NCBI GenBank assembly: GCA_000004695.1 | Contig: CM000150.2 | Span: 96,001 to 160,000 of the forward strand | DNA from: Dictyostelium discoideum | Lineage: Eukaryota | Direction: 5' to 3' | Length of the DNA: 64,000 nt | The notes under the pieces: model-generated | The model's database searches: none | Told to the model about the DNA's origin: nothing | Seen by the model: only the letters and a program-made list of their open reading frames with translations | Made by a program: the position numbers and the translations under genes | Shown here: piece after piece, positions 1,136-56,615 of the stretch | Numbering within the stretch: position 1 is the first letter of the stretch | How the letters are laid out: each line of letters begins with the position of its first letter

Positions 1136-2600
1136 TGGAAAGTTTACTTCCTGTTCTTCTGAAAACGGTTGTTGGTACCGTTGGCAGATTTGGTATTGTT
1201 GCTACCTGATGCAACATTACTTGGTGATCCATTGAAGTTGTTAGATCGGCCATTACTCCCACTACTGGATTTATTATCGCTACTGTTTCCTGTAGTGTTA
1301 TTACCACTTGGGTTAACTAATTTCTTGACATTGGGCTTGGAATGATAATTCAATTTTAACAATGATTGTTTAGCTTCGTTGTTCTTTCTGATTGACTTGG
1401 CTAGCTTTCTTACACGTTCAGTTTCAGTTTCATCAAAAATCTTTGGTGTATCCTTGATCTTAATTGGTAAGAGTACTTCAGAACCATAGATTTCTTTAGC
1501 GATGTTGTTACGAAGGACACGACTAAGCGATGCTTGAGCATTAACAACTAAGACGATTGCTCTCTGAGTTAAGTAACTAATAAGTTCTACATCGACATTA
1601 GAGCTATCAGATGATAAGATACTTGACATGAGAAGCAAAGGTTTCAAGCTATCGTTGATTCGCTTTTCAACAATCAACAAGTCAGTATCATTGTTCTTGA
1701 CGTTGGGTGATACAGTAATACCTTCAGGTGTACCGAATGGAGCGAAATTCACTTGGAAGTTAGATGGAAAGTTGAATACTTTATTCAATTCGGATATCTC
1801 ATCTTTCTTGAGGATTCATTCTTCTTCGACGACATTGTTACTTGATTCATCTTCACTTTGTTCATTCTCAGTGTCAGAGTCATCATGAGAAGGTTGGCTA
1901 CGTGAATTGGTATTAGATGAGAACATAGGTTCTTTCATGAATCTTGTTAAGGCTAAGGAAAGGTTGTTGATTTGATCCTCCATTGATTTCATTCTTAAAT
2001 CAAAGGATTCAGCGCTATTAGAGGTAGAGGTACTACCACTAGAGGCTTCATTATTATTAACAGTGGTAGACATATTTTATTGTTGATATCTAAAATTATA
2101 ATATGAGAAAAATAATAATATTAAAAATTAATAAAGAGAAATAATTATTTGTATAAAATTTGTGTGTGTGTGTATCTTAAATATATATAGGAGGAATTCC
2201 CAAATAAAATAAATCAAATTGTTTTAGTTTTTTGTGCCACTATTTATACGTTTTTATTTTCTTAAAAATTTCTCAAAACTCAAAAAAATAAGTGTTTTCG
2301 ACCCTTCACAACTTTGTGCATTGTGTCGGTTCGGAATTTTTATGTTTTTCGACCTTGCGCAATGATCGCGTCATTGTGCCGGTTCGAAATTTTTACTTTT
2401 CTTCGAAAATTTTTTATTCTTCGAATGTTCTAGAACATTCTAAAAAATTATCTTAAATATTTGGGATCGCGTCATTGTGCCGGTTCGAAATTTTTACTTT
2501 TCTTCGAAAATTTTTTATTCTTCGAATGTTCTAGAACATTCTAAAAAATTATCTTAAATATTTGGGAAATTAAAATAAATAAATGTTATTCATAATATAT
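1136..2600 (-). mobile_element. DIRS-type retrotransposon copy a: 5' ITR (2076-2600, with an internal ~115-bp tandem duplication) plus ORF1, truncated at 1136
   Basis: ORF1 protein nearly identical to other copies; ITR core sequence (gtgccggttcgaaattttt...gaatgttctagaacattc). Confidence 0.85.
1144..2073 (-). pseudogene. DIRS ORF1 (gag-like), split into two frames around 1790-1816
   Basis: ORF track entries 1816-2073 and 1144-1788 together match the 335-aa ORF1 of intact copies. Confidence 0.8.
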
Positions 2601-2858
2601 ATATGATAATATAAACACCGTCCAATAGCTCGTTAATGGATATAATTCTTTCGTGGAACGTTTTAATGTGCGGGTGTTTCCGCGCCAATGACGGCTAGCT
2701 GGTGGTCGCTTTTTGTAATAACAAACAAGATTGAACAGAGATATCATCATTAGCGATCAACTTAAATAAATAGTCGACAGTCTGGGGAGTAGTGGGCATT
2801 TCTGGATCGATAAGGTAAGCGTGACGATTATTTTAAATGGTTTCGCCTAAGCCCTTAA

Positions 2859-3108
2859 CTACTGTAGCAAAGCACGTTTGAAATATAAATTAAATACCAC
2901 AACTAGAACGTTAGGGTTACGTATAGCATACTCAATTAACCAGCGAGTTTTCCCAGTTTGACGTGAGCCACTGAAGCCAATTGTAAACAACTCTCGTAAA
3001 TGACATGCCTTAGTACCGCCAAGATTATTAGCAGCGCTACGCATTATTAATCGCAATACTTTTCTCAAGTTCTTGAACTATCGCATCATAATCAATTGTA
3101 GACGTCAT
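2859..3108 (-). pseudogene. Terminase-like P-loop ATPase gene fragment (Walker A GFSGSRQTGKT); frame broken relative to the paralog at 29994-30140
   Basis: SRQxGKT Walker-A motif of the type seen in phage large-terminase ATPases; RBS tgaggtaaaaaaatcATG; the paralog has an uninterrupted N-terminus MTSTTTIDYDAIEKSIAINNERSAANNLGGTKACQLRELFTIGLSGSR. Confidence 0.45.
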
Positions 3109-3120
3109 GATTTTTTTACC

Positions 3121-3288
3121 TCATTTATTTAAGTGGTTGTATGAACTCACAGGGTTATAGTCCTCATAAACAGGAAGTAGTAGACCAGGTGCATTAGGCA
3201 TTGTTATTAATACACGCTGCCCACGCACATAAGGTTGGTTGTTAACATATTTAAAATCAGTTGCCACATAGCCTTTTGGAATTTCCAT
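3121..3288 (-). CDS. Small phage-like gene (55 aa, MEIPKGYVATDFKYVNNQPYVRGQRVLITMPNAPGLL...); its stop overlaps the RBS of the downstream terminase-like gene
   Basis: RBS aagagga 9 nt upstream of ATG; conserved paralog at about 30158-30327. Confidence 0.5.
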   Translation of the reverse strand: MEIPKGYVATDFKYVNNQPYVRGQRVLITMPNAPGLLLPVYEDYNPVSSYNHLNK

Positions 3289-3549
3289 GGTAAACTAATC
3301 CTCTTAATAGGGGACCGATGGCGGGTTGACCGTCAGACTTCTACAACACCCAACCACGTAATATCGGAGTGCTTCTGTCATTGTTATTTTATTTTTAGAT
3401 GCTACGCGGTTGATTGTGGTTTACTTACACCAAAGTGTAAGCGTCGGTTATTTGCTGGCATACTTTCAGCCACGTCCCAAGTCTCCAATTCACCGCCTTC
3501 CTGCTATTAATGGTGCCTAATGACGGACATTCATCTCAAAATAAAACCA

Positions 3550-3585
3550 GGAGGGGTAAAACCCTCCTATATACTAATCTTACGG
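3550..3585. terminator. Bidirectional intrinsic terminator-like hairpin (AGGAGGGgtaaaaCCCTCCT flanked by A-run and T-run)
   Basis: GC stem with U-tract on both strands; repeated in the paralog at 30572-30606. Confidence 0.5.
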
Positions 3586-3889
3586 ACGTGGTGATATCGA
3601 ATACCACATTCTGTAATTTGGATCATGCTGGGTGTTATTTAATGTTTTGGCTATTGCTATAACCGACCGAGCTACTGTGTTTCCACAGAAATGACTCGAA
3701 CCATCGACCCACAGCGTGTATATAGTGAGCTGGTGGTTTAACCTCCCAAGGGCGGTGTTCGACTATTCGTCAAACGAAGACAAGCTTTTTAATTTAATTA
3801 AACTACCACACCATCTTCAATTTCGATTTTGGTAGAAGAGTTAGATTCAGTTAATCAATGTTGGCTTCGAAATCCAGAATCTCTTTTTC

Positions 3890-4078
3890 CTACTGCTTGA
3901 TTACTTTGCTGATCTCCAGCGGCTGATAACGTTCGATAACTGGATTAACGAACACAGCAATGGAAGCTTCATCGGCTTTCTTAGTACCGTTGAATGCTTC
4001 GGTGCGCGCGGTATTTTCACGCTGGTCAAAATTGGAGTTAGCGGTAACGTTGTGACGAGATATCGATTCGTAGTTCAC
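3890..4078 (-). CDS. Hypothetical phage-like protein (62 aa)
   Basis: ORF in the GC-rich island on the same strand as its neighbours; no recognisable motif. Confidence 0.3.
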   Translation of the reverse strand: MNYESISRHNVTANSNFDQRENTARTEAFNGTKKADEASIAVFVNPVIERYQPLEISKVIKQ

Positions 4079-4130
4079 TTTCTAAGCTTTGACAATATCG
4101 CGTTTCTCGCCTAATGCATTATGTGCATGT

Positions 4131-4761
4131 ACAGCAAAGAAAAATCCACATTTAAAGCAAATTTAAAGCAAAGTTGATTTAAATTGGATTTAAATTGAAT
4201 TTAAAGCCGGGTTTAAAAAATTCATTTTCAAGGTAATTTTTAAGATAATTTTAAGATATTTAAAAATGCCTTTAAAATTTATTTTAAAATAATTTTAAAG
4301 AGGATTTAAAGTTGATTTAAAGTAGATTTAAAGTGAATTAAAATTTCCTTTAAATATAAATTTAAGGTTTTTAATAAAAAACATCTAATTTTAGATCAAA
4401 AAAATGGGGATAAAATATTCTATCATTTTTAAATTATCATCAAAGCAATCAAATGGTGTAATGGTTGATGAGACTACCCTTTGATTGATGAGACTACCCT
4501 TTTGGTAAATTTTCAAAAATTTCAAAAAAAAATTTTATAAAATTTATCCGTTAAATAACGGCTTCGAACTCCGGACCTCGCTTTTAAAGCCATTAAAAAG
4601 CTAATTCCTAAGGTAATTATAAAGGTAATTTATAAGGTGGTTTTAAAGTAACCTTAAAAATTACCTTTAAAATTACCTTAAAAATTGCTTTTGTACAGGA
4701 CTTTAAATTCGCTTTAAATTAAATTTAAATTTGCTTTAAAGGTGGTTTTTCTTTCACTGTG
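4131..4761 (+). mobile_element. TIR hairpin element (B-type end ...A-type end; left terminus 2 bp short), inserted into the 3' end of a phage-like gene
   Basis: Termini ACAGCAAAGAAAAATCCAC ... GGTGGTTTTTCTTTCACTGTG; internal tRNA-like/hairpin core. Confidence 0.7.
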
Positions 4762-5026
4762 TAGTGTATTCTTTGCCAGCTACGGTAATAAGCGTACTAG
4801 CGTTGGACAATATCACTTTAGCAAGGATATCTTCACGCACACGAATGATATCTTGTAAACCATGGTAGTTTTCTTTGATCGCATCAGAAACCGCCCCAAC
4901 GGAATCATTGAAACCAGCTTCTTGGGCGAATTCATCAGTACCGCGAGTTAGTGAAATAAGCATCAGACCGTTGGACATGGATTTAACCGTGGCCAATGTA
5001 CGGGTAATTGAAATCTTAGTAGCCAT
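4754..5026 (-). CDS. Phage-like gene (MATKISITRTLATVKSMSNGLML...) truncated at its 3' end by the TIR element; the last codons read into the TIR
   Basis: RBS aaaggaaaaggaaatataATG; the ORF stop lies inside the CACTGTG terminus. Confidence 0.45.
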   Translation of the reverse strand: MATKISITRTLATVKSMSNGLMLISLTRGTDEFAQEAGFNDSVGAVSDAIKENYHGLQDIIRVREDILAKVILSNASTLITVAGKEYTTQ

Positions 5027-5157: not shown

Positions 5158-5247
5158 TGGTAGAGAATTAGAGATTCGAACTCTAGGAGCGGTTTCCCGC
5201 CCGACGGTTTTTAAGACCGTTACCTTGAACCACTCGGACAATTCTCC
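5158..5247 (-). tRNA. Class-II tRNA-Leu (anticodon UAA), long variable arm, discriminator A73, genomically encoded CCA end
   Basis: Manual fold: acceptor GGAGAAT/ATTCTCT, anticodon stem ACGGT/ACCGT with loop CUUAAAA, T-arm TAGAG-TTCGAAT-CTCTA, 3' ACCA; close to the bacterial tRNA-Ser/Leu body GGAAGTGTGGCCGAGCGGTTGAAGG... Confidence 0.7.
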
Positions 5248-5336
5248 AATTGGGTGACACCCATTAGAATTTCACGTAGCTCTATAGCTATTACAGTCAA
5301 TACTAACACTTCACAAAAAGGCCTGGTTAACCCCTA

Positions 5337-6014
5337 CTGATTGAACTTAGGTTGTCTTAGAGTTCCTACCAGGAAAACTGCAACTGATATCATTGTTTGG
5401 TGATTACAAAAAAGACCAGTGTTATTGGCTGGTCTTTTTGAGTTATACGATACCGTTCTCTTTACGATAACGGAATATTTTTGATCTATCGATATTAAGC
5501 ATTTCTGCAATTACTTAATCGCTATTACCTCACCAAGCAGTTCGATAATCATGGCAATATGTTCTGGGTTAAGTTGTGTCTTTTGGCTTTTACTTAATGC
5601 TGATCTACCAACACAGCGAAGAAAAAACCACCTTTAAATTCGCTTTAAATTAAATTTAAATTTGCTTTAAAGTCCCGAATTAAAGCAATTTTAAAGGTAA
5701 TTTTAAAGCGAATTTAAAGGTGGTTTTTTCTTCGCTGTGTTGGTAGATCAGCATTAAGTAAAAGCCAAAAGACACAACTTAACCCAGAACATATTGCCAT
5801 GATTATCGAACTGCTTGGTGAGGTAATAGCGATTAAGTAATTGCAGAAATGCTTAATATCGATAGATCAAAAATATTCCGTTATCGTAAAGAGAACGGTA
5901 TCGTATAACTCAAAAAGACCAGCCAATAACACTGGTCTTTTTTGTAATCACCAAACAATGATATCAGTTGCAGTTTTCCTGGTAGGAACTCTAAGACAAC
6001 CTAAGTTCAATCAG
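5337..6014. repeat. Near-perfect ~275-bp-arm palindrome of phage-like sequence centred on a 128-bp mini TIR element
   Basis: 5337-5611 is the reverse complement of 5740-6014, read directly. Confidence 0.85.
5612..5739. mobile_element. Mini TIR element (internally deleted, two termini back to back) at the palindrome centre
   Basis: CACAGCGAAGAAAAAACCACCTTTAAA ... TTTAAAGGTGGTTTTTTCTTCGCTGTG. Confidence 0.7.
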
Positions 6015-6644
6015 TAAAACACTAAAAATTACCTTTAAAATTACCTTTAAAATTACCTTTTTAATCGCTTTAAAAGCGAGGTCCTGAGTTCGAAGCCGTT
6101 ATTTAACGGATAAATTTTTTAAAATTTTTTTTTTTAATTTTTCAAAAATTACCAAAAGGGATTCGATCCCCCGACCCTCTATCAAAGGGTAGTCTCATCA
6201 ACCATTACACCATTTGATTGCTTTGATGAAAATTTAAAAATGATAGAATATTTTATCCCCATTTTTTTGTTCTAAAATTAGATCTTTTTTATTAAAAACC
6301 TTAAATTTATGTTTAAAGGAAATTTAAATTCACTTTAAATCTACTTTAAATCTACTTTAAATCCTATTTAAAATTAATTTAAAATAAATTTTAAAGGTAT
6401 TTTTAAATATCATAAAAATTATCTTAAAAATTACCTTAAAAATCACCTTTAAAATCACCTTTAAAATCACCTTTATAAATTTATTTTAAAGCAAATTTTA
6501 AAGGCATTTTTAAATATCTTAAAAATTACCTTAAAAATTACCTTAAAAATGAATTTTTTAAACGCGGCTTTAAATTCAATTTAAATCCAATTTAAATCAA
6601 CTTTTCTTTAAATTTGCTTTAAAGGTGCATTTTTCTTTGCTGTG
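6015..6644 (-). mobile_element. TIR hairpin element, truncated on the palindrome side; B-type terminus at 6624-6644
   Basis: Internal modules and tRNA-like core in reverse orientation; terminus GGTGCATTTTTCTTTGCTGTG. Confidence 0.7.
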
Positions 6645-6693
6645 AAGAGATCCAGTTCTACCATTCTGGCGATGCTTGCTTGCCGATCAGTCA

Positions 6694-27713: not shown

Positions 27714-29940
27714 TTAATAAATTAAATTTTTAATTGATTGAGTTGGTTCGAGAACACTCTTTTCTAGATTTAACTTGAAACCTAGTTTGACAAGTAAGTC
27801 CATTGTCTTTTTGAGGTTGGATAAACATTCTTCTTTTGTTGAACCGACGATTAATAGATCGTCCAAGTAAGCGATGACGGATACTTTGATATCTCTCAAC
27901 ATTCGAAGTACAGGTCTTAACAGCATTGTAAAGATACGAGGAGCTGTCGATAACCCGAACGACATTGTTTTCCAACGGTAATGCGAACCTTTCCACAAGA
28001 AGCGGAATAAGTCTCTGTATTGCGGATCTACTAACACGTGGAGTAGGCTTTCTTGATATCGAGTTTTACCATGTAATAACCTTGTTTGACCATTGACGGT
28101 AGATTCTTGATTCCTTCCATCTTGAATGATTGGTTGTTGATGTAAGTGTTTAACCTTTTTAGATCGAGAACTGGACGATGTAGATTCGTTCCAGGTTTTG
28201 GAACCGTAAACACGTTGGAGTAAAAAACGCGCTTTGAATAACGGTTTGGAAGTACTTGTTCGATGGCATCGTCTAATAACAAGTCTTGTACTTCCTTTGT
28301 GATGCAATCTGATTTCGGACCCTCTGGAATTGAAATCGGAATTGGGTTTAGCATCGGCTTGAAGTTTGGAAGTAGATGGACTTTTAATCCATTTACGACC
28401 TCTTGACAAAAGTTTAGAAGACCCAATTCTTTCCAAACTTGTTTGTGGTGGAACAGACGTCCACCTACTGGTAAGTTTACTTCTTGTTCTTCTGAAAACG
28501 GTTGTTGGTACCGTTGGCAGACTTGGTATTGTTGCTACCTGATGCAACATTACTTGGTGATCCATTGAAGTTGTTAGATCGGCCATTACTCCCACTACTG
28601 GATTTACTATTACTACTGTTTCCTGTAGTGTTATTACCACTTGAGTTAACTGATTTCTTGACATTGGACTTGGAATGATAATTCAATTTTAACAATGATT
28701 GTTTTGCTTCGTTGTTCTTTCTGATTGATTTGGCTAGCTTTCTTACACGTTCAGTTTCAGTTTCATCAAACATCTTTGGTGTATTCTTGATCTTAATTGG
28801 TAAGAGTACTTCAGAACCATAGATTTCTTTAGCGATGTTGTTACGACGGACACGACTAAGCGATGCTTGAGCATTAACGGCTAAGACGATTGCACTCTGA
28901 GTTAAGTAACTAACAAGTTCTACATCGACAATAGAGCTATCAGATGATAACATACTTGACATGAGAAGCAAAGGTTTTAAGCTATCGTTGATTCGCTTTT
29001 CGACAATCAACAAGTCAGTATCATTGTTCTTGACGTTGGATGATACAGTAATACCTTCAGGTGTACCGAATGGAGCGACGTTCACTTGGAAGTTAGATGG
29101 AAAGTTGAATACTTTATTCAATTCGGATATCTCATCTTTCTTGAGGATACATTATTCTTCGACGAGTAAACCTTGATTGTTTACCATATGTTTGTACTGA
29201 CCAAGTAAGGTATCGGATAATTGATAATCGGTTGGAACATCGACATTGTTACTTGATTCATCTTCACTTTGTTCATTCTCAGTGTCAGAGTTATCATGAG
29301 AAGGTAGGCTACGTCTTAAATCAAAGGATTCAGCGCTATTAGAGGCAGAGGTACTACTACTAGAGGCATCATTATTATTAACAGTGGTAGACATTTTTTA
29401 TTGTTGATATCTAAAATTATAATATGAGAAAAATAATAATATTAAAAATTAATAAAGAGAAATAATTATTTGTATAAAATTTGTGTGTGTGTGTATCTTA
29501 AATATATATAGGAGGAATTCCCAAATAAAATAAATCAAATTGTTTTAGTTTTTAGTGCCACTATTTATACGTTTTTATTTTCTTAAAAATTTCGCAAAAC
29601 TCAAAAAAATAAGAGTTTTCGACCCTTCACAACTTTGTGCATAGTGTCGGTTCGGAATTTTTCGACCTTGCGCAATGATCGCGTCACTGTGCCGGTTCGA
29701 AATTTTTATTTTTCTTTCGAAAATTTTTTTTTTCTTCGAATGTTCTAGAACATTCTAAAAAATTATCTTAAATATTTGGGAAATTCAAATAAATAAATGT
29801 TATTCATAATATTAATATATATATGATAATATAAATCTTGGAATGTTTTAGAACATTCTAAAAAATTATCTTAAATATTTGGGAAATTCAAATAAATAAA
29901 TGTTATTCATAATATATATATATGATAAATTAAATTTACT
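27714..29940 (-). mobile_element. DIRS copy f: 5' ITR (29400-29940, partly duplicated), ORF1 with an internal deletion, N-terminal half of the RT ORF; truncated at 27714
   Basis: ORFs 28477-29121, 29152-29394, 28031-28426, 27714-28664. Confidence 0.8.
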
Positions 29941-29993
29941 AGAACGTTAGGGTTACGGATAGCATACTCAAATAACCAGCGAGTTTTCCCAGT

Positions 29994-30140
29994 TTAACGT
30001 GAGCCACTCAAGCCAATTGTAAACAACTCTCGTAACTGACATGCCTTAGTACCGCCAAGGTTATTAGCAGCGCTACGCTCATTATTAATCGCAATACTTT
30101 TCTCAATCGCATCATAATCGATGGTTGTCGTAGACGTCAT
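29994..30140 (-). CDS. Terminase-like gene N-terminal fragment (48 aa, uninterrupted here; cut downstream by the DIRS-f ITR)
   Basis: RBS atgaggtaaaaaatcATG; homolog of 2859-3108. Confidence 0.45.
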   Translation of the reverse strand: MTSTTTIDYDAIEKSIAINNERSAANNLGGTKACQLRELFTIGLSGSR

Positions 30141-30334
30141 GATTTTTTACCTCATTTATTTAGGTGGTTGTATGAACCCACATGGGTATAGTCCTCATAA
30201 ACAGGAGCTACTTTTGCTGGTAGACCAGGTGCATTAAGCATTGTTTTTAATACACGCTGACCACGCACATAAGGTTGGTTGCTAACATATTTTAAATCAG
30301 TTGCCACATAGCCTTTTGGAATTTCCATGGTAAA

Positions 30335-30520
30335 CTAATCCTCTAAATAGGTGACCAATGGCGGGTTTACTTCTACAACACTCAACCACGTAATGTTGGA
30401 AGTGCTTCGGTATTGTTCTTTTATTTTGAGATGCCATGCGGTTGATCGTGGTTTACTTACCCCAAAGTGTAAGTGTCGGTTATTTGCTGGCATACTTTCA
30501 GCCACTTCCCAAGTCTCCAA
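30335..30520 (-). CDS. Small phage-like gene (61 aa, TTG start); the island-A copy (3300-3480) carries an in-frame stop
   Basis: Stop overlaps the RBS of the next gene; paralog pseudogenised. Confidence 0.4.
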   Translation of the reverse strand: METWEVAESMPANNRHLHFGVSKPRSTAWHLKIKEQYRSTSNITWLSVVEVNPPLVTYLED

Positions 30521-31121
30521 TTCACCGCCGTCCTGCTATTAAGGGTGCCCAATGACGGACATCCATCTCAAAATAAAACTAGGAGGGGGTAAAACCCTCC
30601 TATATACTGATCTTACGGACGTGGTGATATCGAATACCACATTCTGTAATTTGGATCACACTGGGTGTTATTTACAATACCTAACGGACTGTATTTATCG
30701 TAGAAGGATCCCACTGTTGCGTTGCAATACCGTTAACAATCAACACTAAGCTGATTGTCCATACACTATTCTTCGTCGATGTATGATAAGGTAGGACAAT
30801 CCCATCAGCCGGTAGCTTATCCAATACAGCATCAACAATCAGCGCTTTGGACGGTGCTAAAATAAGGAACATCCGTTGTTAGCTTTGTTTTCCATATTTG
30901 GTTCACTGTCTTACAAACAAACCACCGGCATCTTTACCCTGCGTGTTACTAATAGGAATGGGGAAGGCATTCCTATTAGTAACACGCATAACTGACGTTT
31001 TCACTAGGGGCTAATACTAATTAATATTACCATGCCAGCTACGGTGTCAATCCAGTGTGTCAAATTAGTAACAGCTTTGGAGCCATCCAGATATGACGGA
31101 ACGCCTGGGCCTGAAATTTAA

Positions 31122-40752: not shown

Positions 40753-42267
40753 AAGACTGATCAATACCCATCACTAATTTACCATTAGGGCAGGGGATCT
40801 CACGGATACTAGATTGCGCAAAACTTCCCGTATTCTCATCAATAAGAAGATATGTGGTGATTGTATCCACAGTGGGGGCTGGGATGGTCCCAATGCCGTG
40901 TTCCAGGCCTGATAAAACTTATCAGAATTAGAACCGCCATCTTGCACAACTATCGCTGGTGTTAATGTAGCAGCCGCAACAAACAACCCTTGATCAAATT
41001 TTAATCTATTTCCTGCCTTCGCACTAATACGCACATCTCAACTATCGGAAGCAGGACCCGCCATCATATTTAAAATGATAGGTGTGCCGCCATCTTCCAT
41101 GTACGCTATGAGTGTTGCGTTCTGAATTGTAGGACCTAGTGCACCATTACCGTAAGCTTGAATGAACTGGCCCTTAGGGGTAGGAATACCGTTATCGCGC
41201 CTGGAGCTGATAATATTTCGTTGTCCGTAACATCCTGTTTCGTGTAAGCCGTGTGAGTAGCCACTGATACTTTGGGTGCTGTAAAGACGTCTTTCACAAT
41301 GTCATTAATCTCTGCAGCGGTCACAACACCGCCCTGGATAACTTCCTCTATGTCTGGTAATCCTCCGTTACCACCACCACCGCCCGCTAATGCGATTATA
41401 TCGCCTAACGTTGCTTTCCTTAAGGCTAATCGTCCATCTTCATTTAGTTGGGAAATCGCAACAATCTCCTGACCCGTTATAGTTTGAGCTGCTGGTAATG
41501 TAGAAAATTTAACAGCCATAATAACGCTCCATAATTCAACCGATTTAAATGCTAAAATATCAATATATTGCAATGGTCAAAGCATGGGGTTTTATAGGAG
41601 CCCTACTAGACTCTCTCGTTTAAACTTTATACACTACTTATTATTATTGATTTAAAAATGAGTGCAGGACTCATTAAGGCTTGCACAGGGAATTGAACCC
41701 CAATCCACGTTATCGTTGGTGGCTCTAGGCCGCTGTGAGCTACATACATTCTGTCAGAAAGGTAACCTACGTCCCTCCAACTTTAACGCACTCTATTGTT
41801 GAGCTATACAAGCATAACATAAATGACCCAGCCTCGCAGTATTTATTACATTCGCAGCGGCGATGCACGCCTAACCACACAGTTTATGAACCCACTAGAT
41901 TATCAGATCCCGACTGGAAGTTTTGTCACGAACTCTATTGTAGGGTAATTAATCCTACGGTCAAGCCGTCTACCAATTAGTTAAGTACCTAGTAAATGTT
42001 CAACGATTAAGACATCATCCTCTGGACTCAGTCCGTATCTGTTCTTTGCGTGTCTGGCTATTACTGGCTTATTTGTTTGCAGTGGGTCTTTGCTATCATC
42101 GCTGAGACTTGGATGATAAAAATACCAACCAAGTCTTGTTCACCGCTCCACGTATAAGGGGAAAATATTGTCTCCTCAAGACAGCCCGAAGGTAGTCGGT
42201 GGCTAACCACAGCCCAACTCACCTTTTGCTCAGGATTTACCCTAAAAGGCTATTAACTTTATAACCT
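40753..42267. other. Prokaryote/phage-like island D
   Basis: GC-rich; gene with a GGAG RBS; degenerate tRNA-like stretch at about 41660-41760. Confidence 0.65.
41136..41519 (-). CDS. Phage-like structural-type protein (127 aa, MAVKFSTLPAAQTITGQEIVAISQLNEDGRLALRKATLGDIIALAGGGGGNGGLPDIEEV...)
   Basis: RBS ttatGGAGcgttattATG; Gly-rich central loop; function not recognisable. Confidence 0.4.
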   Translation of the reverse strand: MAVKFSTLPAAQTITGQEIVAISQLNEDGRLALRKATLGDIIALAGGGGGNGGLPDIEEVIQGGVVTAAEINDIVKDVFTAPKVSVATHTAYTKQDVTDNEILSAPGAITVFLPLRASSFKLTVMVH

Positions 42268-51900: not shown

Positions 51901-52782
51901 CTAAAGAACAAAGAAGTGGTGTTGTTTCAATATTAGAATTAACTTCGTTAGATGATACAAACTCTCAAGTGTGCCCTGTTCGCCACCTTGCAACATACCT
52001 TAGAGCCTCTAAAGGAAGAAGAAAGCCCCATTCGGGTGACCCTGTCTTTATTAAGAATGAGGGTGAACCGCTCCAAGTTAATGATATTAACTCAATTGTA
52101 CTATCAACGCTCTCAAAGTCAGGCATTGATATTGTCAAGTTCAAATCTCACTCTACCCGTTCCGCTATGGCTTCTCTGCTGTTGTCCAATAACGTTCCGT
52201 TCCACGTTGTCAAGAAGATGGGTCGTTGGAAATCAAACGATACTGTAGATTCCTTCTACGATAAAAGAATCATTGGTGAAAAATCTGGTGGTTTCTTAAA
52301 TACTGTCGTCCAAATTTCATAATATATATATATATATGATAATATAAATTAAAAATTTAATTTATTAAATTATATTTTATATTAAATATATATATATATA
52401 TTAGTCCCATCCCACCCGCCCTTAGTCGGAATTCCATAAATCAAATTGTTTTAGTTTTTATTGCCACTATTTATACGTTTTTATTTTCTTAAAAATTTCG
52501 CAAAACTCAAAAAAATAAGTGTTTTCGACCCTTCACAACTTTGTGCATAGTTTCGGTTCAGAATTTTTCAGTTTTTCGACCTTGTGCAATGATCGCGTCA
52601 TTGTGCCGGTTCGAAATTTTTACTTTTCTTTCGAAAATTTTTTTTATTCTTCGAATGTTCTAGAACATTCTAAAAAATTATCTTAAATATTTGGGAAATT
52701 CAAATAAATAAATGTTATTCATAATATATATATATATATTTAATATAAAATATAATTTAATAAATTAAATTTGTAATTAAAC
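48990..52782 (+). mobile_element. DIRS copy l: both ITRs; internal deletion fusing ORF1 in frame to RT (637-aa ORF 49444-51357); recombinase ORF 49890-52322 intact
   Basis: LLVEE|GIKNLPSMVKQ junction compared with copy b. Confidence 0.85.
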
Positions 52783-53313
52783 AGAACCCTGAGACGTATG
52801 TGGTCTACCAGAAGGTATCAAATGTAGCAAATCGCGTGCTTTAGAACAATCGCATGTATTCGGTGTGTTATGTATTCCAACGTACCATACCCGTAATCAT
52901 TCGTTTGGTTTCAAATATGTGTTGGTATCGAAGAACCTACAGCGTCTTCAACCAGGTGAGCACCTTGCGGCGGGGGACAATTTTTGCACACTCCCCTAAT
53001 TTGACAGAGGGCGGTGACTAAATACGGGTGTGAAACTAACGTGTGTTTCATGTCACTACCAGAAGTCGAACAGGATGGAATGATTGCTACGGAATCATTC
53101 GTTAATGCCATGGCGTGTGATAAGATGGAGAGTCGTTTATTGCAATGGGGTGAGAACAATGTACTTGTTAAACAACTACAAACCTTATCCAGTGATCGGG
53201 GAACAAATTCGGGATGATGGTTTTTTATTCGCAATGCGCAATATCGAATCTGATGTTGGTCTGGTCAACATGACTGCGAAAGCATTGATGGAAGTGGATG
53301 TCATCTTGGATAA

Positions 53314-53835
53314 ATGCGTGTACGGCGACCTAGTGCAACGGTAATCAACATTACCATCAAGTCCAACCGCCTGCGTACAGGTCGTTCAGAAGTTCAGTTC
53401 TATGATAAACAATCCGACCCCTATGAAAAAGCAGACCGTGACTTTCCTATCAATCTGCGTGGTGTGTATGAAACATTATTGAGTCGTCACCCACATACCT
53501 TAATGTTAGAGCCTAGTCTGAACACTTTGGTCAATAATGCCATATCTGATACCGGTGGTTTGGATCGTCGAATGAATGCCCAAACTGGTGCAATCTTGGC
53601 GATGGATAAAGGTGTTCAGATCTATAACAAGTTCCTATCGGCTACTGGCGTGCTTAGATCTCTTTTGTTAAATGCATTGTGGCAGGTGTGCGTTTCAAGA
53701 TCTCTGACAGTCATGAGGGTAAAGGTGTTATCGTTCATGTCTTTAAAGATGAAGATGCACCGACATGGCGTGCGTACAGATGTCATCGTGGATAACGCCT
53801 CTATCACTAAAACTCTATTGAACAGTTTGAGTTGA
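53314..53835 (+). CDS. Phage-like hypothetical protein (173 aa); upstream frames 53014-53344 look like frameshifted parts of the same gene
   Basis: ORF track; overlapping stop/start with the next gene. Confidence 0.35.
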   Translation: MRVRRPSATVINITIKSNRLRTGRSEVQFYDKQSDPYEKADRDFPINLRGVYETLLSRHPHTLMLEPSLNTLVNNAISDTGGLDRRMNAQTGAILAMDKGVQIYNKFLSATGVLRSLLLNALWQVCVSRSLTVMRVKVLSFMSLKMKMHRHGVRTDVIVDNASITKTLLNSLS

Positions 53836-54452
53836 TGTCCAACAGTCCTATCTATCAGTCCAAAGCAAACCGTGATCATCATGTGAGCTGGGTGATTGAA
53901 CATGAAGTAGAGCTGCTAGCGTTAACTGATCGCTTGTATTATGGGGCAGAGCAGATTCTTCGCATTAAGAAGAACCATGACTTCCCAACATATCCTGCTC
54001 GTTATCGAGCACCTTATGGGAGGTTTGTGATAACTCGTGATCCAGTAATGATTGTACCAGTGTATATCATCCTGTTGGAAAAGATGAGGGAATATTTGGT
54101 TTCCTATGCAGTGCCTAAGTTAATGCACTTCGGTACTTTATCTATTATTACTCAAGTAGACAAGTACGCCCTCCCTTGGCGTAATGTACCAACTCGTTTG
54201 GCTGGTGAGTCAGACATTCGTCTGTTCTGGCGGCTGGTACACAAACCGTCTATTATCATTGCCAATACACCGGCAATGCAGAAAGCAGTAGGTAAGTTAT
54301 TGCGTCATGAGAATCCAATGCGTATTGACAATTTGATGGATGAAAGTGTATCTCCACTAGGTCGTAATCGACCAGTGCAGATGTATAAACACATGCAAGC
54401 TTGTCGTGGTATTCGCTTTGAACGTCAATTGTTAACTGAAGGGGCCGCTTAA
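53835..54452 (+). CDS. Phage-like hypothetical protein (about 205 aa)
   Basis: ATG at 53835 overlaps the TGA of the upstream ORF. Confidence 0.4.
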   Translation: MSNSPIYQSKANRDHHVSWVIEHEVELLALTDRLYYGAEQILRIKKNHDFPTYPARYRAPYGRFVITRDPVMIVPVYIILLEKMREYLVSYAVPKLMHFGTLSIITQVDKYALPWRNVPTRLAGESDIRLFWRLVHKPSIIIANTPAMQKAVGKLLRHENPMRIDNLMDESVSPLGRNRPVQMYKHMQACRGIRFERQLLTEGAA

Positions 54453-54474
54453 AGCAGATCGGCAAGATTTGCTA

Positions 54475-55059
54475 ATGAATGGAGAGCAGATCTGGTCGTT
54501 AGATCCTCAGTGTAATAATCCTAAAGTTCAGGTTCTCGCTGAGGATAAAACTTTTGAGATGTTGGTGCGTCCTCTGATAGCCAGCTGGCCAATTCAGAAG
54601 TTCCAAGAAGGGATGGCTCTGGGTAAGCGGCATTTCTTAACAGGGTTCCGCATTTCAAACAAAGGTATCCGTAACATACTGACCGAAGGGTATCGTGACT
54701 ACGATATGATCATTGTACAACTAATGGGCACTGATCTGACCGGTGGGTTCATCGATGTAGTGAAATTTAACTCATTACAAGCCCGTACCATTAACCATAT
54801 CAACAACGCCTTTGTTGCAAGAATTCCTGAATATGTCACTACTGCAAGTATGGTTGACTATTTAGAGATTCTATTATTCGTCAAGTTCGAGCAGGTCTGG
54901 TTTAGTTCCAGAAATCTATCGGCTAGGCTTATAAGAAAGGACTGGGCCATATCAAAAACCCTGATAAATTTCCAAAGAATCAAATCGCTGAGGATATCAA
55001 ACAAGGCGGTGTTTCCGATGGCCAGACTGCTCAGGTGTTTATCTCATGTGGTTACCTAA
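54475..55059 (+). CDS. Phage-like hypothetical protein (about 194 aa)
   Basis: ORF track; ATG 23 bp after the previous stop. Confidence 0.35.
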   Translation: MNGEQIWSLDPQCNNPKVQVLAEDKTFEMLVRPLIASWPIQKFQEGMALGKRHFLTGFRISNKGIRNILTEGYRDYDMIIVQLMGTDLTGGFIDVVKFNSLQARTINHINNAFVARIPEYVTTASMVDYLEILLFVKFEQVWFSSRNLSARLIRKDWAISKTLINFQRIKSLRISNKAVFPMARLLRCLSHVVT

Positions 55060-55990
55060 CCGACCATAACTCCAGGATCTTTGTTCGTCCTGTTACGGTC
55101 AAGGTATTGGTAGCTTCTATGAAGCCTTTGTTGAATCACATTCTGCTACTGAGGCCATGATCTTTACCAAGAAACCATTGGAGGATTCAGAATGGTTTAA
55201 CCGTAAGTTACAATTGGTCGGTTAGGCCATACAGCGCGTCCATCTTGGTGAGGATTGAGGTACTCAAATTACAGTACCGGTAATAATGCGTCCAGGCTGG
55301 TCCGGTGTAATGGCGGGTAAGTATTACGTAGACGACAGTGGTCAGATGTAAGCCATTCATGAGAAAGATGAAGGTAAACTGCTGCGTATAAGGTCACTAA
55401 TGTATTGTCAGCATAAATATCGTTCGGGTGTTTATGAGCGCTGTTATGGTAAGTTGGCTATGTCGATCCCGTATTTCAACGTACTGGGCAAGATAGGGAA
55501 AAACGAAGCCATTGCTGGGCACGTGTCCGCAACAGAATTTGATGCTGCTTTATAACAGAAGATGTTGTCCACTAAACACCTGGATACTTCTTCTACGGTG
55601 GATCCGTTTATCATTCATCGTGAAGATGCAATTTATATAACGTGTGGTATTCGTGATAATACTGCTGGTTTAAACCTACGACTGAAAGGGCAGAATGTAG
55701 CCAGATGACGTAGGGATTGTGCTTGATCAGTTCTTAGAGTTACTTAACCGACTTCTACAGGTGAATATCGTTCATGCTGAAATGATTCTGTACTCGGTAA
55801 TGGTGCGTGACCCAAGCAAGTTGGATCATTGCTTACCGCGCGCTAACGAACAACGGCAGTTTAGTTCTTATCACGAATGTATCGAATTCCCCAGTCTTTT
55901 GGTGCAGTTGCTGTATCAAGAGCAAGCGGATGTTATGATGAAACCCATGACGTTCTTAATTGATAACCGTCAGTCACATCGGCAGATAGA

Positions 55991-56083
55991 TTATATTACC
56001 CATCTGTTCAAGCACAAACCTCCGTTAGCCTTCTCAACAATTAACGGTCATCGATCAATGTTGAATCAGTTGTTACTCCTTAG
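55991..56083 (+). mobile_element. ~93-bp fragment of the DIRS recombinase ORF (…HLFKHKPPLAFSTINGHRSMLNQLLLL…) embedded in phage-like island E
   Basis: Near-identity to DIRS sequence; shares the ttcaaGcac variant with the adjacent copy l. Confidence 0.7.
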
Positions 56084-56110
56084 TATCTTTGCAGACTAAG
56101 GGGTAGGGCG

Positions 56111-56506
56111 ATGCGCACTACGGCAACGCTTATCATTGGTAATCATGGATTTACGGTTAAAGACTACAATGATGAGTTCTACAGTAAGGCAAGGGCGTAC
56201 TGCGCACGTTTCGTTAAATACCGGATTGAATCTAAGGTCGTCCAAGGACGGAGATCTTTTGTCAAGGTACCAGATCGTGTATTCGGCTCAGCTTCGAAGG
56301 ACCGTAAAGAGCTACACATTAACTGTTTAGCTGAATTTAAACAATTTATGTTGAATAGTGGTTGGAACCCTGAACGGTTCAAAGAAATCACCAGGGAATT
56401 ACCTGAGGGACGAGATGTCAATTCCAATGACCACCAGGTTGCAGTACCAGTTAGAGAAAGATCCTTCTGGTATCACGACCCGAATCAATACATTGCAAAC
56501 GGGTAA
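56111..56506 (+). CDS. Phage-like hypothetical protein (131 aa)
   Basis: ORF track. Confidence 0.35.
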   Translation: MRTTATLIIGNHGFTVKDYNDEFYSKARAYCARFVKYRIESKVVQGRRSFVKVPDRVFGSASKDRKELHINCLAEFKQFMLNSGWNPERFKEITRELPEGRDVNSNDHQVAVPVRERSFWYHDPNQYIANG

Positions 56507-56615
56507 AGGAAAGACATTCTATGCCATATACAACATGTTCAAACTGCAGAAGCTCACTGGCATTATGTTAATGCCGAAGTACATCACGACTTGGCATACT
56601 GGCTTACATGACTTT

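Follow-up and report, generated by a model that had tools for sequence, protein, structure and literature searches.

Two broken copies of a P-loop gene in a centromeric window

The window analysed here is the whole 64,000-nucleotide stretch of Dictyostelium discoideum AX4 DNA (contig CM000150.2, positions 96,001 to 160,000), which is part of the chromosome-1 centromeric DIRS array of Gloeckner and Heidel 2009 (PMC2665215). It is AT-rich and dominated by copies, 94-98% identical, of a 4.8-kb element that encodes reverse transcriptase, RNase H and tyrosine recombinase (Pfam domains) and is, from this domain content, DIRS-1. Between these elements lie two minus-strand fragments, about 90% identical and both broken, of an open reading frame (ORF) carrying a P-loop, or Walker A, motif. 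They are very probably relics of a single small jumbo-phage gene, of the protein family phrog_2586, that was acquired by the amoeba and decayed in its centromere. The two copies and their borders are arranged as follows.

2850..3108, minus strand: copy 1, a phrog_2586-type pseudogene covering about 85 recognisable N-terminal codons and overlapping the gene model DDB_G0267284 (2859-3044)
29925..30140, minus strand: copy 2 of the pseudogene, overlapping the annotated DDB_G0267318
2616..2849, minus strand: non-DIRS DNA between the stop of copy 1 and a DIRS terminal repeat
2465..2615, no strand assigned: DIRS-1 terminal repeat adjoining copy 1, about 95-97% identical to more than 10 other copies of the repeat
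about 29836-29925: the equivalent DIRS-1 repeat end adjoining copy 2

The motif GFSGSRQTGKT and its presence in two copies, on which the original prediction was built, are both confirmed. In copy 1, the motif lies at 2946-2978 (minus strand), downstream of an ATG at 3106-3108. The opening frame reads MTSTIDYDAIVQELEKSIAINNA and then meets a stop, and a second frame reads SAANNLGGTKACHLRELFTIGFSGSRQTGKTRWLIEYAIRNPNVLVVVFNLYFKRALLQ up to a premature stop codon at 2859-2861. The frame changes because, when the copies are aligned, 2 nt are missing near 3041 relative to copy 2. The peptide that had been proposed for copy 1 is thus a two-frame reconstruction across this 2-nt frameshift, as its ellipsis already suggested. 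In copy 2, the frame opened by the ATG at 30138-30140 leads from the N-terminus into the P-loop without a shift, and the Walker A contains a nonsense codon (CAA to TAA, giving SR*TGKT; stop at 29994-29996). This copy also carries a 6-nt insertion and a 12-nt deletion by which VQEL is lost. An uninterrupted and conserved reading frame, as would be expected of a Dictyostelium gene, is found in neither copy, disabling lesions being directly visible in each, and both P-loop copies are, as judged from these lesions, pseudogenes.

The similarity between the copies extends well upstream of the gene, from 2885 to 3641 and from 29925 to 30674, respectively, with 88-90% identity, and outside 3641/30674 the flanks are unrelated. 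At the other end, copy 2 is truncated at about 29925 by a DIRS terminal repeat, eight codons short of the copy 1 ORF stop. The cut-off of the second copy by a DIRS repeat, which had been proposed, is therefore seen. In copy 1, the ORF ends at a stop codon and not at a repeat, and the DNA beyond it stays free of DIRS sequence up to the repeat boundary at 2615/2616. This DNA (2616..2849) probably corresponds to the decayed C-terminal half of the P-loop gene; positions 106-131 of the family hidden Markov model (HMM) leave a weak, non-significant trace at about 2626-2700 (independent E-value 0.16).

The fragments belong to the phage protein family phrog_2586

In a PHROG profile search, the reconstructed window peptide matches phrog_2586, a family labelled 'unknown function', over positions 6-77 of the 166 of the profile (E 3.5e-11). 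When the family HMM is run on the translated frames of the window, copy 1 is matched at positions 2-21 and 21-85, in two frames, with an E-value of 1e-20, and copy 2 at positions 3-67 with an E-value of 1e-18. Homology is also directly observed by tblastn against a collection of 50,697 phage records, 29 of which match. Every one of these has a genome of 247-307 kb, and their hosts are Serratia, Klebsiella, Erwinia, Salmonella and Pectobacterium. The list is headed by Salmonella phage SA002 together with the Erwinia phages pEa_SNUABM_37/48 and AH06, with identities of 47-49% (E 1e-14 to 1e-15). All these values place the motif noticed in the original prediction well beyond chance.

The intact homologues are small proteins of 194 residues in SA002, 157 in Klebsiella phage MJ359, 169 in Serratia phage Moabite and 172 in AH06. 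The named ones, ACSA002_2060 (SA002), AH06_219 (AH06, Agricanvirus) and CPT_Moabite_081 (Moabite), are annotated as hypothetical proteins. An exhaustive profile search of 1.84 billion representative proteins brings up 117 relatives of 61-376 residues, and all but three (61, 89 and 376 residues) fall between 138 and 206 residues, so that the size of the family is a matter of direct observation. All 79 aligned members match phrog_2586. Among the 16 close homologues (183-201 residues), the N-terminus MAAINYDAIAQEL is invariant and is accompanied by GGPRQTGKT, a Walker-B-like QIFIDG/Q and a conserved C-terminus, KYYTWLAK...LTWLID. In the family as a whole, Walker A reads PRQTGKT, and the Walker-B-like stretch, hhhhD, is not followed by a glutamate.

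The window copies resemble the phage genes in the homology of their N-terminal ~85 residues, including YDAI..EL and the [PS]RQTGKT Walker A, and in having a tail-fibre-like gene and a structured RNA upstream. They differ from them in being truncated pseudogenes in a eukaryotic centromere, with 47-49% identity at best, and in having a lineage-specific 55-residue ORF between the RNA element and the gene. Taken by itself, the fragment is an ordinary pseudogene of the uncharacterised phage family phrog_2586.

The proposed reading of the fragment as a large terminase

From its SRQxGKT-type P-loop, the gene had been taken for a large terminase subunit (TerL), and the islands of non-transposon DNA that contain it for a tailed-phage packaging module. 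T4 gp17 is an example of a tailed-phage TerL. At the level of the motif, the resemblance holds. The TerL Walker A pattern, [RK]Q.GK[ST], is found in copy 1 as GSRQTGKT, and IQPRQTGKS in the TerL of the closest phage lineage is of the same type as GGPRQTGKT in the small family. The ATPase domain of tailed-phage TerL and the family have in common this xRQxGK[ST] P-loop and the RecA-like ASCE fold class, and the similarity of their profiles is local: in hhalign, the family profile and 30 jumbo-phage terminases are aligned with 43% probability over 44 columns around Walker A. Only 11 columns are aligned with the single SA002 TerL sequence, and none with a helicase control. Three further points speak in favour of a terminase, namely a sub-threshold Pfam match of one of the 79 members to GpA_ATPase (E 0.009-0.018), the TerL ATPase domain of P74-26 at rank 18 of a Foldseek search of the PDB, and the GenBank record of Klebsiella phage vB_kp_MJ359 (PQ182779.1), in which the 157-residue homologue (our locus L002:3001-3474) is annotated 'terminase large subunit'. 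This label is probably a mis-annotation prompted by the motif.

The motif by itself is not diagnostic, since the same RQTGKT string is present in F1-ATPase alpha (GDRQTGKT), and beyond the motif a terminase is not supported. The Walker B of TerL has the form hhhhDE (consensus HIDEG), whereas that of the family is QIFIDG/Q, without the catalytic glutamate; the comparison is made on intact family members, the region being lost or decayed in the window copies. TerL is a two-domain protein of about 400-750 residues, with an ATPase and a C-terminal RNase H-like nuclease. The intact homologues are, in contrast, complete with conserved N- and C-termini and a single-domain model, they have no nuclease domain, and none of the 117 relatives is terminase-sized (about 150-200 residues against about 720). 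Moreover, SA002 has its own, separate TerL, ACSA002_1790 (726 residues, 153.6-155.7 kb), and the small gene, at 176.7 kb, lies 21 kb apart from it; the family is thus encoded alongside a bona fide TerL and outside the packaging module.

Profile searches point in the same direction. The Pfam search proposed as a check of the terminase assignment yields no match at threshold for the fragment or its intact homologues (79 members scanned), PHROG returning phrog_2586 instead, and a terminase PHROG is matched by none of the 79 aligned members. NCBIfam gives nothing for the nine sequences scanned, and PADLOC, for eight sequences, a single weak helix-turn-helix match (E 0.013). In sequence searches of the PDB, with one sequence and two profiles, only non-significant P-loop matches are obtained, headed by F1-ATPase alpha and a designed ATPase, and structural scores are higher for helicase domains than for terminases. 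Finally, when the ORFs of SA002 are searched against the window by tblastn and tblastx, five gene families are mapped and no sequence like the SA002 TerL is found. The neighbours are not packaging genes either: in SA002, Moabite, AH06 and pEa_SNUABM_37, the P-loop gene sits among small hypothetical genes, tRNAs and structured RNAs. That the fragment is the N-terminal ATPase part of a TerL gene, the islands marking a packaging module, is hardly tenable, and the terminase reading appears largely refuted by these comparisons. The islands do come from tailed-phage DNA, as had been proposed, but not from a packaging module, and the terminase label of the gene fragment should be dropped.

Predicted fold and possible role of the ancestral protein

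An AlphaFold2 model, made for a relative that is 97% identical to the SA002 protein, consists of a single alpha/beta domain (pLDDT 81, pTM 0.80), and the phrog_2586 family is accordingly modelled as a stand-alone RecA-like P-loop protein. The ancestral gene would thus have encoded a protein of about 170-195 residues with a single RecA-like P-loop domain. Foldseek finds nothing in the PDB at E <= 0.001. The closest resemblance is to RecA-like domain 1 of SF2/SF1 helicases (DEAD-box, NS3, UvsW), with E about 0.01 for DEAD-box domain 1 and 6-17% identity to the family. Unlike these helicases, the family has only one RecA-like domain, and its helicase motifs are limited to Walker A and B, so that the resemblance would reflect the fold class and not a family assignment. 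The best matches among predicted viral structures are uncharacterised proteins of 145-172 residues from T4-like and phiKZ-like phages, the latter including 201phi2-1, Noxifer, PhiPA3, Phabio and EL.

The ancestral protein would have been a small nucleoside triphosphatase associated with, and perhaps dependent on, nucleic acid. A role related to RNA is a tentative suggestion, somewhat short of an even chance, and is preferred because of the helicase-domain-like fold and the RNA-rich neighbourhood (tRNAs, Y-RNA-like matches and the structured RNA). As to this neighbourhood, the jumbo phages have, some hundreds of bases before the P-loop gene, matches to YrlA, a Y RNA-like family, that stay below threshold (36-42 bits, the gathering score being 69; L012:876-979 and L013:374-445). 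Several tRNA-like T-arm motifs, not called by ARAGORN, are also present in the upstream region of SA002.

A structured RNA element and a small ORF upstream of the gene

The duplicated segment contains, besides the P-loop gene, the following features.

3379..3550, minus strand: relic of a structured RNA, upstream of the operon, found with a covariance model and 76% identical in nucleotides to an intergenic region of SA002
30411-30582, minus strand: its counterpart in copy 2
3538..3568, minus strand: terminator-like hairpin upstream of the RNA element, with an aggaggg / ccctcct stem followed by a T-run, as read from the sequence
3121..3288, minus strand: ORF of 55 residues (MEIPKGYVATDF...), directly upstream of the P-loop gene and with a Shine-Dalgarno-like site
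30152-30328: its counterpart in copy 2, of 58 residues

The RNA element is the best-conserved part of the duplicated segment, and the window relics score 147.9 and 159.8 bits with the covariance model. Its SA002 counterpart is unannotated and folds with a z-score of -4.19. A consensus built from nine sequences is a four-way junction that is closed by a long helix and has the invariant core AAAUAGGAGACUUGGGA ... CUGAAAGUAC ... CGAAUA, and compensatory changes occur at 10 of the 36 pairs. With the covariance model, 86 matches are found among the sequences gathered for the analysis (45-174 bits), 82 of them spanning the full model, and the phage loci include L001:5831-5979, L012:1495-1690 and L013:1096-1244. 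In the resulting alignment, 92.6% of the cells pair, against 26-46% when the partners are slid, and both sides change at 31 of the 36 pairs, in an alignment that is fitted to the model and hence favours the structure. The RNA is widespread among viral contigs, its core pattern matching at least 120 of those in IMG/VR. The P-loop gene follows only the RNA copies of the jumbo-phage type; elsewhere, the RNA occupies a variety of intergenic positions, as a rule a short way ahead of a gene in the same orientation. Neither the relic nor the jumbo-phage copies nor any of five distant loci match an Rfam 15 family at E <= 1, and open-access full texts contain no relevant literature on the core sequence.

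Two features of this segment set the window copies apart from the phages. A 22-nt hairpin insertion is present in the RNA of both window copies and absent from the six phage versions (6/6). The 55-residue ORF has no significant tblastn match in phage records; at its position, phages AH06, L014, L017 and pEa_SNUABM_37 have one or two small ORFs that are unrelated to it.

Phage gene order and other phage-derived DNA

Upstream of the duplicated segment in copy 1, and elsewhere in the window, other phage-derived genes are found.

4763..5026, minus strand: N-terminal part of a phrog_1491-type (tail-fibre-like, ACSA002_2050-like) gene, DDB_G0267286; PHROG E 7e-16; SA002 174.8-175.1 kb
3854..4130, minus strand: C-terminal part of the same gene, found by tblastn; SA002 ORF residues 115-228
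4131..4762, no strand assigned: AT-rich dispersed repeat of 632 bp inside the phrog_1491-type gene, with many copies in the window at 85-95%
5158-5247, minus strand: class II tRNA of bacterial type whose CCA end is encoded; ARAGORN calls it Leu(taa), and it is 76-86% identical to phage tRNA-Ser genes
52776..56615, plus strand: RNA polymerase island, in which decayed beta and beta' genes of a non-virion RNA polymerase are accompanied by an SF2 helicase; the collinear region of SA002 is 213.6-219.0 kb

Synteny with SA002 is directly observed: the window from 5026 to 2850, on the minus strand, corresponds to SA002 174.8-177.0 kb. In Enterobacterales jumbo phages (SA002, AH06 and relatives), the tail-fibre-like gene comes first and a structured RNA second, in some of them followed by one or two small ORFs, and then comes the P-loop gene. 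The same order is kept on the minus strand of this first island (tail-fibre-like gene, RNA element, small ORF, P-loop gene), and it is that of AH06 genes 217-218-219. A tRNA follows the P-loop gene in SA002, pEa_SNUABM_37 and the metagenomic L013 and L014, and it is a tRNA-Tyr in the two annotated genomes; in the window, the position of this tRNA-Tyr is lost to the DIRS repeat. In alignments with the SA002 ORF, the ACSA002_2050-like gene covers window positions 5026-4763 and 4177-3854 (minus strand). The uninterrupted phrog_1491-type protein, as found in other genomic copies, has 230 residues, or 255 in DDB_G0294314. The tRNA at 5158-5247 is probably phage-derived as well; its anticodon has possibly mutated, and it may be one of the centromeric tRNA genes of the 2009 centromere paper.

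The second line of evidence for a jumbo-phage donor is the RNA polymerase island, in which split multisubunit RNA polymerase beta and beta' genes are collinear with those of SA002, as would be expected of a Chimalliviridae-like donor. In nucleotides, it is about 67% identical to the non-virion RNA polymerase genes found in several Erwinia phages, among them AH06, RAY and Desertfox, and it has been broken up by at least 5 frame changes, by in-frame stops, of which there are more than 15, and by two internal deletions. The GC content of the islands is 37-44% against 46-52% in the SA002 homologues. We take SA002 and the Erwinia phages matching these genes to be Chimalliviridae-like, that is phiKZ-like and nucleus-forming, the phage records themselves listing Caudoviricetes or Agricanvirus only. 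Chimallin, PhuZ tubulin and the major capsid protein did not turn up with the SA002 ORFs in the 64-kb window. A weak trace of ACSA002_2040 is present near 48.1 kb.

Within this island, an ORF at 55719-56099 ends in THLFKHKPPLAFSTINGHRSMLNQLLLL (about 55995-56090, plus strand). Since this peptide comes from a DIRS-1 ORF, the relics of RNA polymerase and helicase are separated by a small piece of DIRS.

Origin and history of the copies

From the arrangement of these relics, we infer the following route of entry and order of events. Jumbo-phage DNA would have reached the D. discoideum germ line most plausibly through phagocytosed prey bacteria that were infected, and would have lodged in the chromosome-1 centromeric DIRS-1 array, where it was presumably never under selection. 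Frameshifts, stops and deletions would then have built up, and insertions of DIRS-1 and other repeats would have cut the phage DNA. A fragment of about 750 bp, comprising the RNA element, the small ORF and the 5' part of the P-loop gene, could have been copied within the array, with a divergence that now amounts to about 10%. The fragments would be neutral relics without function in Dictyostelium, shaped by DIRS insertion, recombination and mutation.

Instead of being duplicated in the amoeba genome, the two copies could derive from separate integrations of related phages. The abrupt end of their similarity at 3641/30674, with unrelated flanks beyond, would fit this possibility, as would the fact that no disabling mutation of the P-loop gene is common to both. 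However, the copies have in common the lineage-specific 22-nt hairpin insertion and the small ORF (55/58 residues) that is not found in phage records, and they are 88-90% identical to each other, against at most 76%, locally, to any phage. A single acquisition followed by copying is therefore the simplest reading, and two integrations are unlikely. Serial copying in place is further suggested by a third copy on chromosome 1, outside the window (DDB_G0267234, 105 residues), which passes the copy 1 stop by 44 codons and is 97% identical in protein to copy 1. A further copy is present on a floating contig (DDB_G0294314).

It could also be asked whether the copies have been kept for the use of the host, as a component of the centromere, a source of small RNAs for DIRS silencing, or expressed peptides. 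The multiplied non-transposon sequences are indeed reported to be exclusive to centromeres (PMC2665215), more than one copy of the segment has survived, a second assembly has it as well, and gene models exist for both fragments (DDB_G0267284 and DDB_G0267318). These models are, however, automatic ORF calls of 48-61 residues. Disabling lesions and boundaries differ from copy to copy, there is no sign of a conserved ORF, and the divergence of about 10% between the copies looks unconstrained, all of which makes host use very unlikely.

Copying and decay of a single phage acquisition, which we prefer, recall nuclear copies of mitochondrial DNA (NUMTs) and Wolbachia DNA in insect genomes, which are decaying foreign insertions in eukaryotic genomes. 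In all these cases, non-functional foreign DNA has been fixed, fragmented by transposons and duplicated, and is decaying. The present case differs from them by its source, a lytic-type jumbo phage, and by its site, a retrotransposon-built centromere.

Some results nevertheless weigh against an origin from one phage gene of the phrog_2586 family. With the family HMM on translated frames, no significant match is found to the C-terminal half of the gene in copy 1, and the structural matches of the family are generic for RecA-like domains. There is no close known phage, nucleotide identity being at most 67% over the RNA polymerase genes. In addition, the independent assembly GCA_054883475.1, in which the locus is found again, is only 96.4% identical to the window over the common locus; strain divergence, a paralogous copy or read error could account for this value.

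Genuine centromeric sequence or assembly artefact

A last alternative is that the phage-like islands are contamination or a chimeric assembly, phage DNA from a food bacterium having been stitched into the centromere. Dictyostelium is commonly grown on Klebsiella, and the relatives of the phage genes infect Enterobacterales, including Klebsiella. The chromosome-1 centromere was, furthermore, rebuilt manually from shotgun reads (PMC2665215). Fresh phage DNA would not, however, be expected to contain stops, frameshifts and deletions throughout its genes, nor to exist in at least 3-4 copies diverged by about 10%. Dictyostelium repeats are present inside the phage-derived genes, the RNA polymerase/helicase island contains a small piece of sequence derived from DIRS, and the GC content of the islands is lower than that of the phage homologues. 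The independent assembly GCA_054883475.1 has the same locus with the same repeat insertion (4131-4762). An artefact of this kind is thus extremely unlikely, and we conclude that the islands are genuine and old components of the genome, because they are pseudogenised, multi-copy, interrupted by host repeats and present in a second assembly. Exact-protein look-ups of the window ORFs in other assemblies mostly give no match.

The centromeres of Dictyostelium were reported to contain multiplied non-transposon sequences found nowhere else in the genome and tRNA genes that are mostly pseudogenes, without any origin being given for either and without mention of phages (PMC2665215). In the open-access full texts, there is no report of phage-derived DNA in Dictyostelium centromeres, nor of DDB_G0267284 or DDB_G0267318, although a description elsewhere is possible. 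There is about an even chance that a multi-copy relic of a phiKZ-like phage explains the repeats and tRNA pseudogenes of 2009 and that the RNA of about 135-180 nt is a possible new class. If so, a concrete origin would be offered for the unexplained non-transposon repeats of Dictyostelium centromeres, and this RNA, which has no Rfam family, could be a processing element, a ribozyme or a leader, possibly of independent interest to RNA biologists.

To our knowledge, the transfer of bacteriophage DNA into eukaryotic nuclear genomes has rarely been documented. Here, several kilobases of jumbo-phage DNA, with RNA polymerase subunits, a helicase, a tail-fibre-like gene, a tRNA, a structured RNA and a P-loop gene, lie inside the retrotransposon-built centromere of a model organism. 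They could illustrate how DNA is taken up from prey ('you are what you eat') and, as neutral markers, could be used for dating centromere turnover.

Other features of the window

Three other regions of the window can be mentioned. The flank of copy 2 away from the DIRS repeat (30675-31114), unrelated to the copy 1 flank, has no phage match by blastn. A non-repeat island at 40755-42260, with about 44% GC, contains an ORF of 145 residues (41136-41573, minus strand) with a tail-fibre-like N-terminus and a glycine run; this ORF has no match in PHROG or Pfam, nor by tblastn in the phage collection. Finally, an inverted duplication (5334-5510, minus strand, and 5841-6017, plus strand) contains two identical ORFs of 58 residues on opposite strands. 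As window positions 5611-6645 are missing from GCA_054883475.1, this duplication (5334-6017) may be a local rearrangement.

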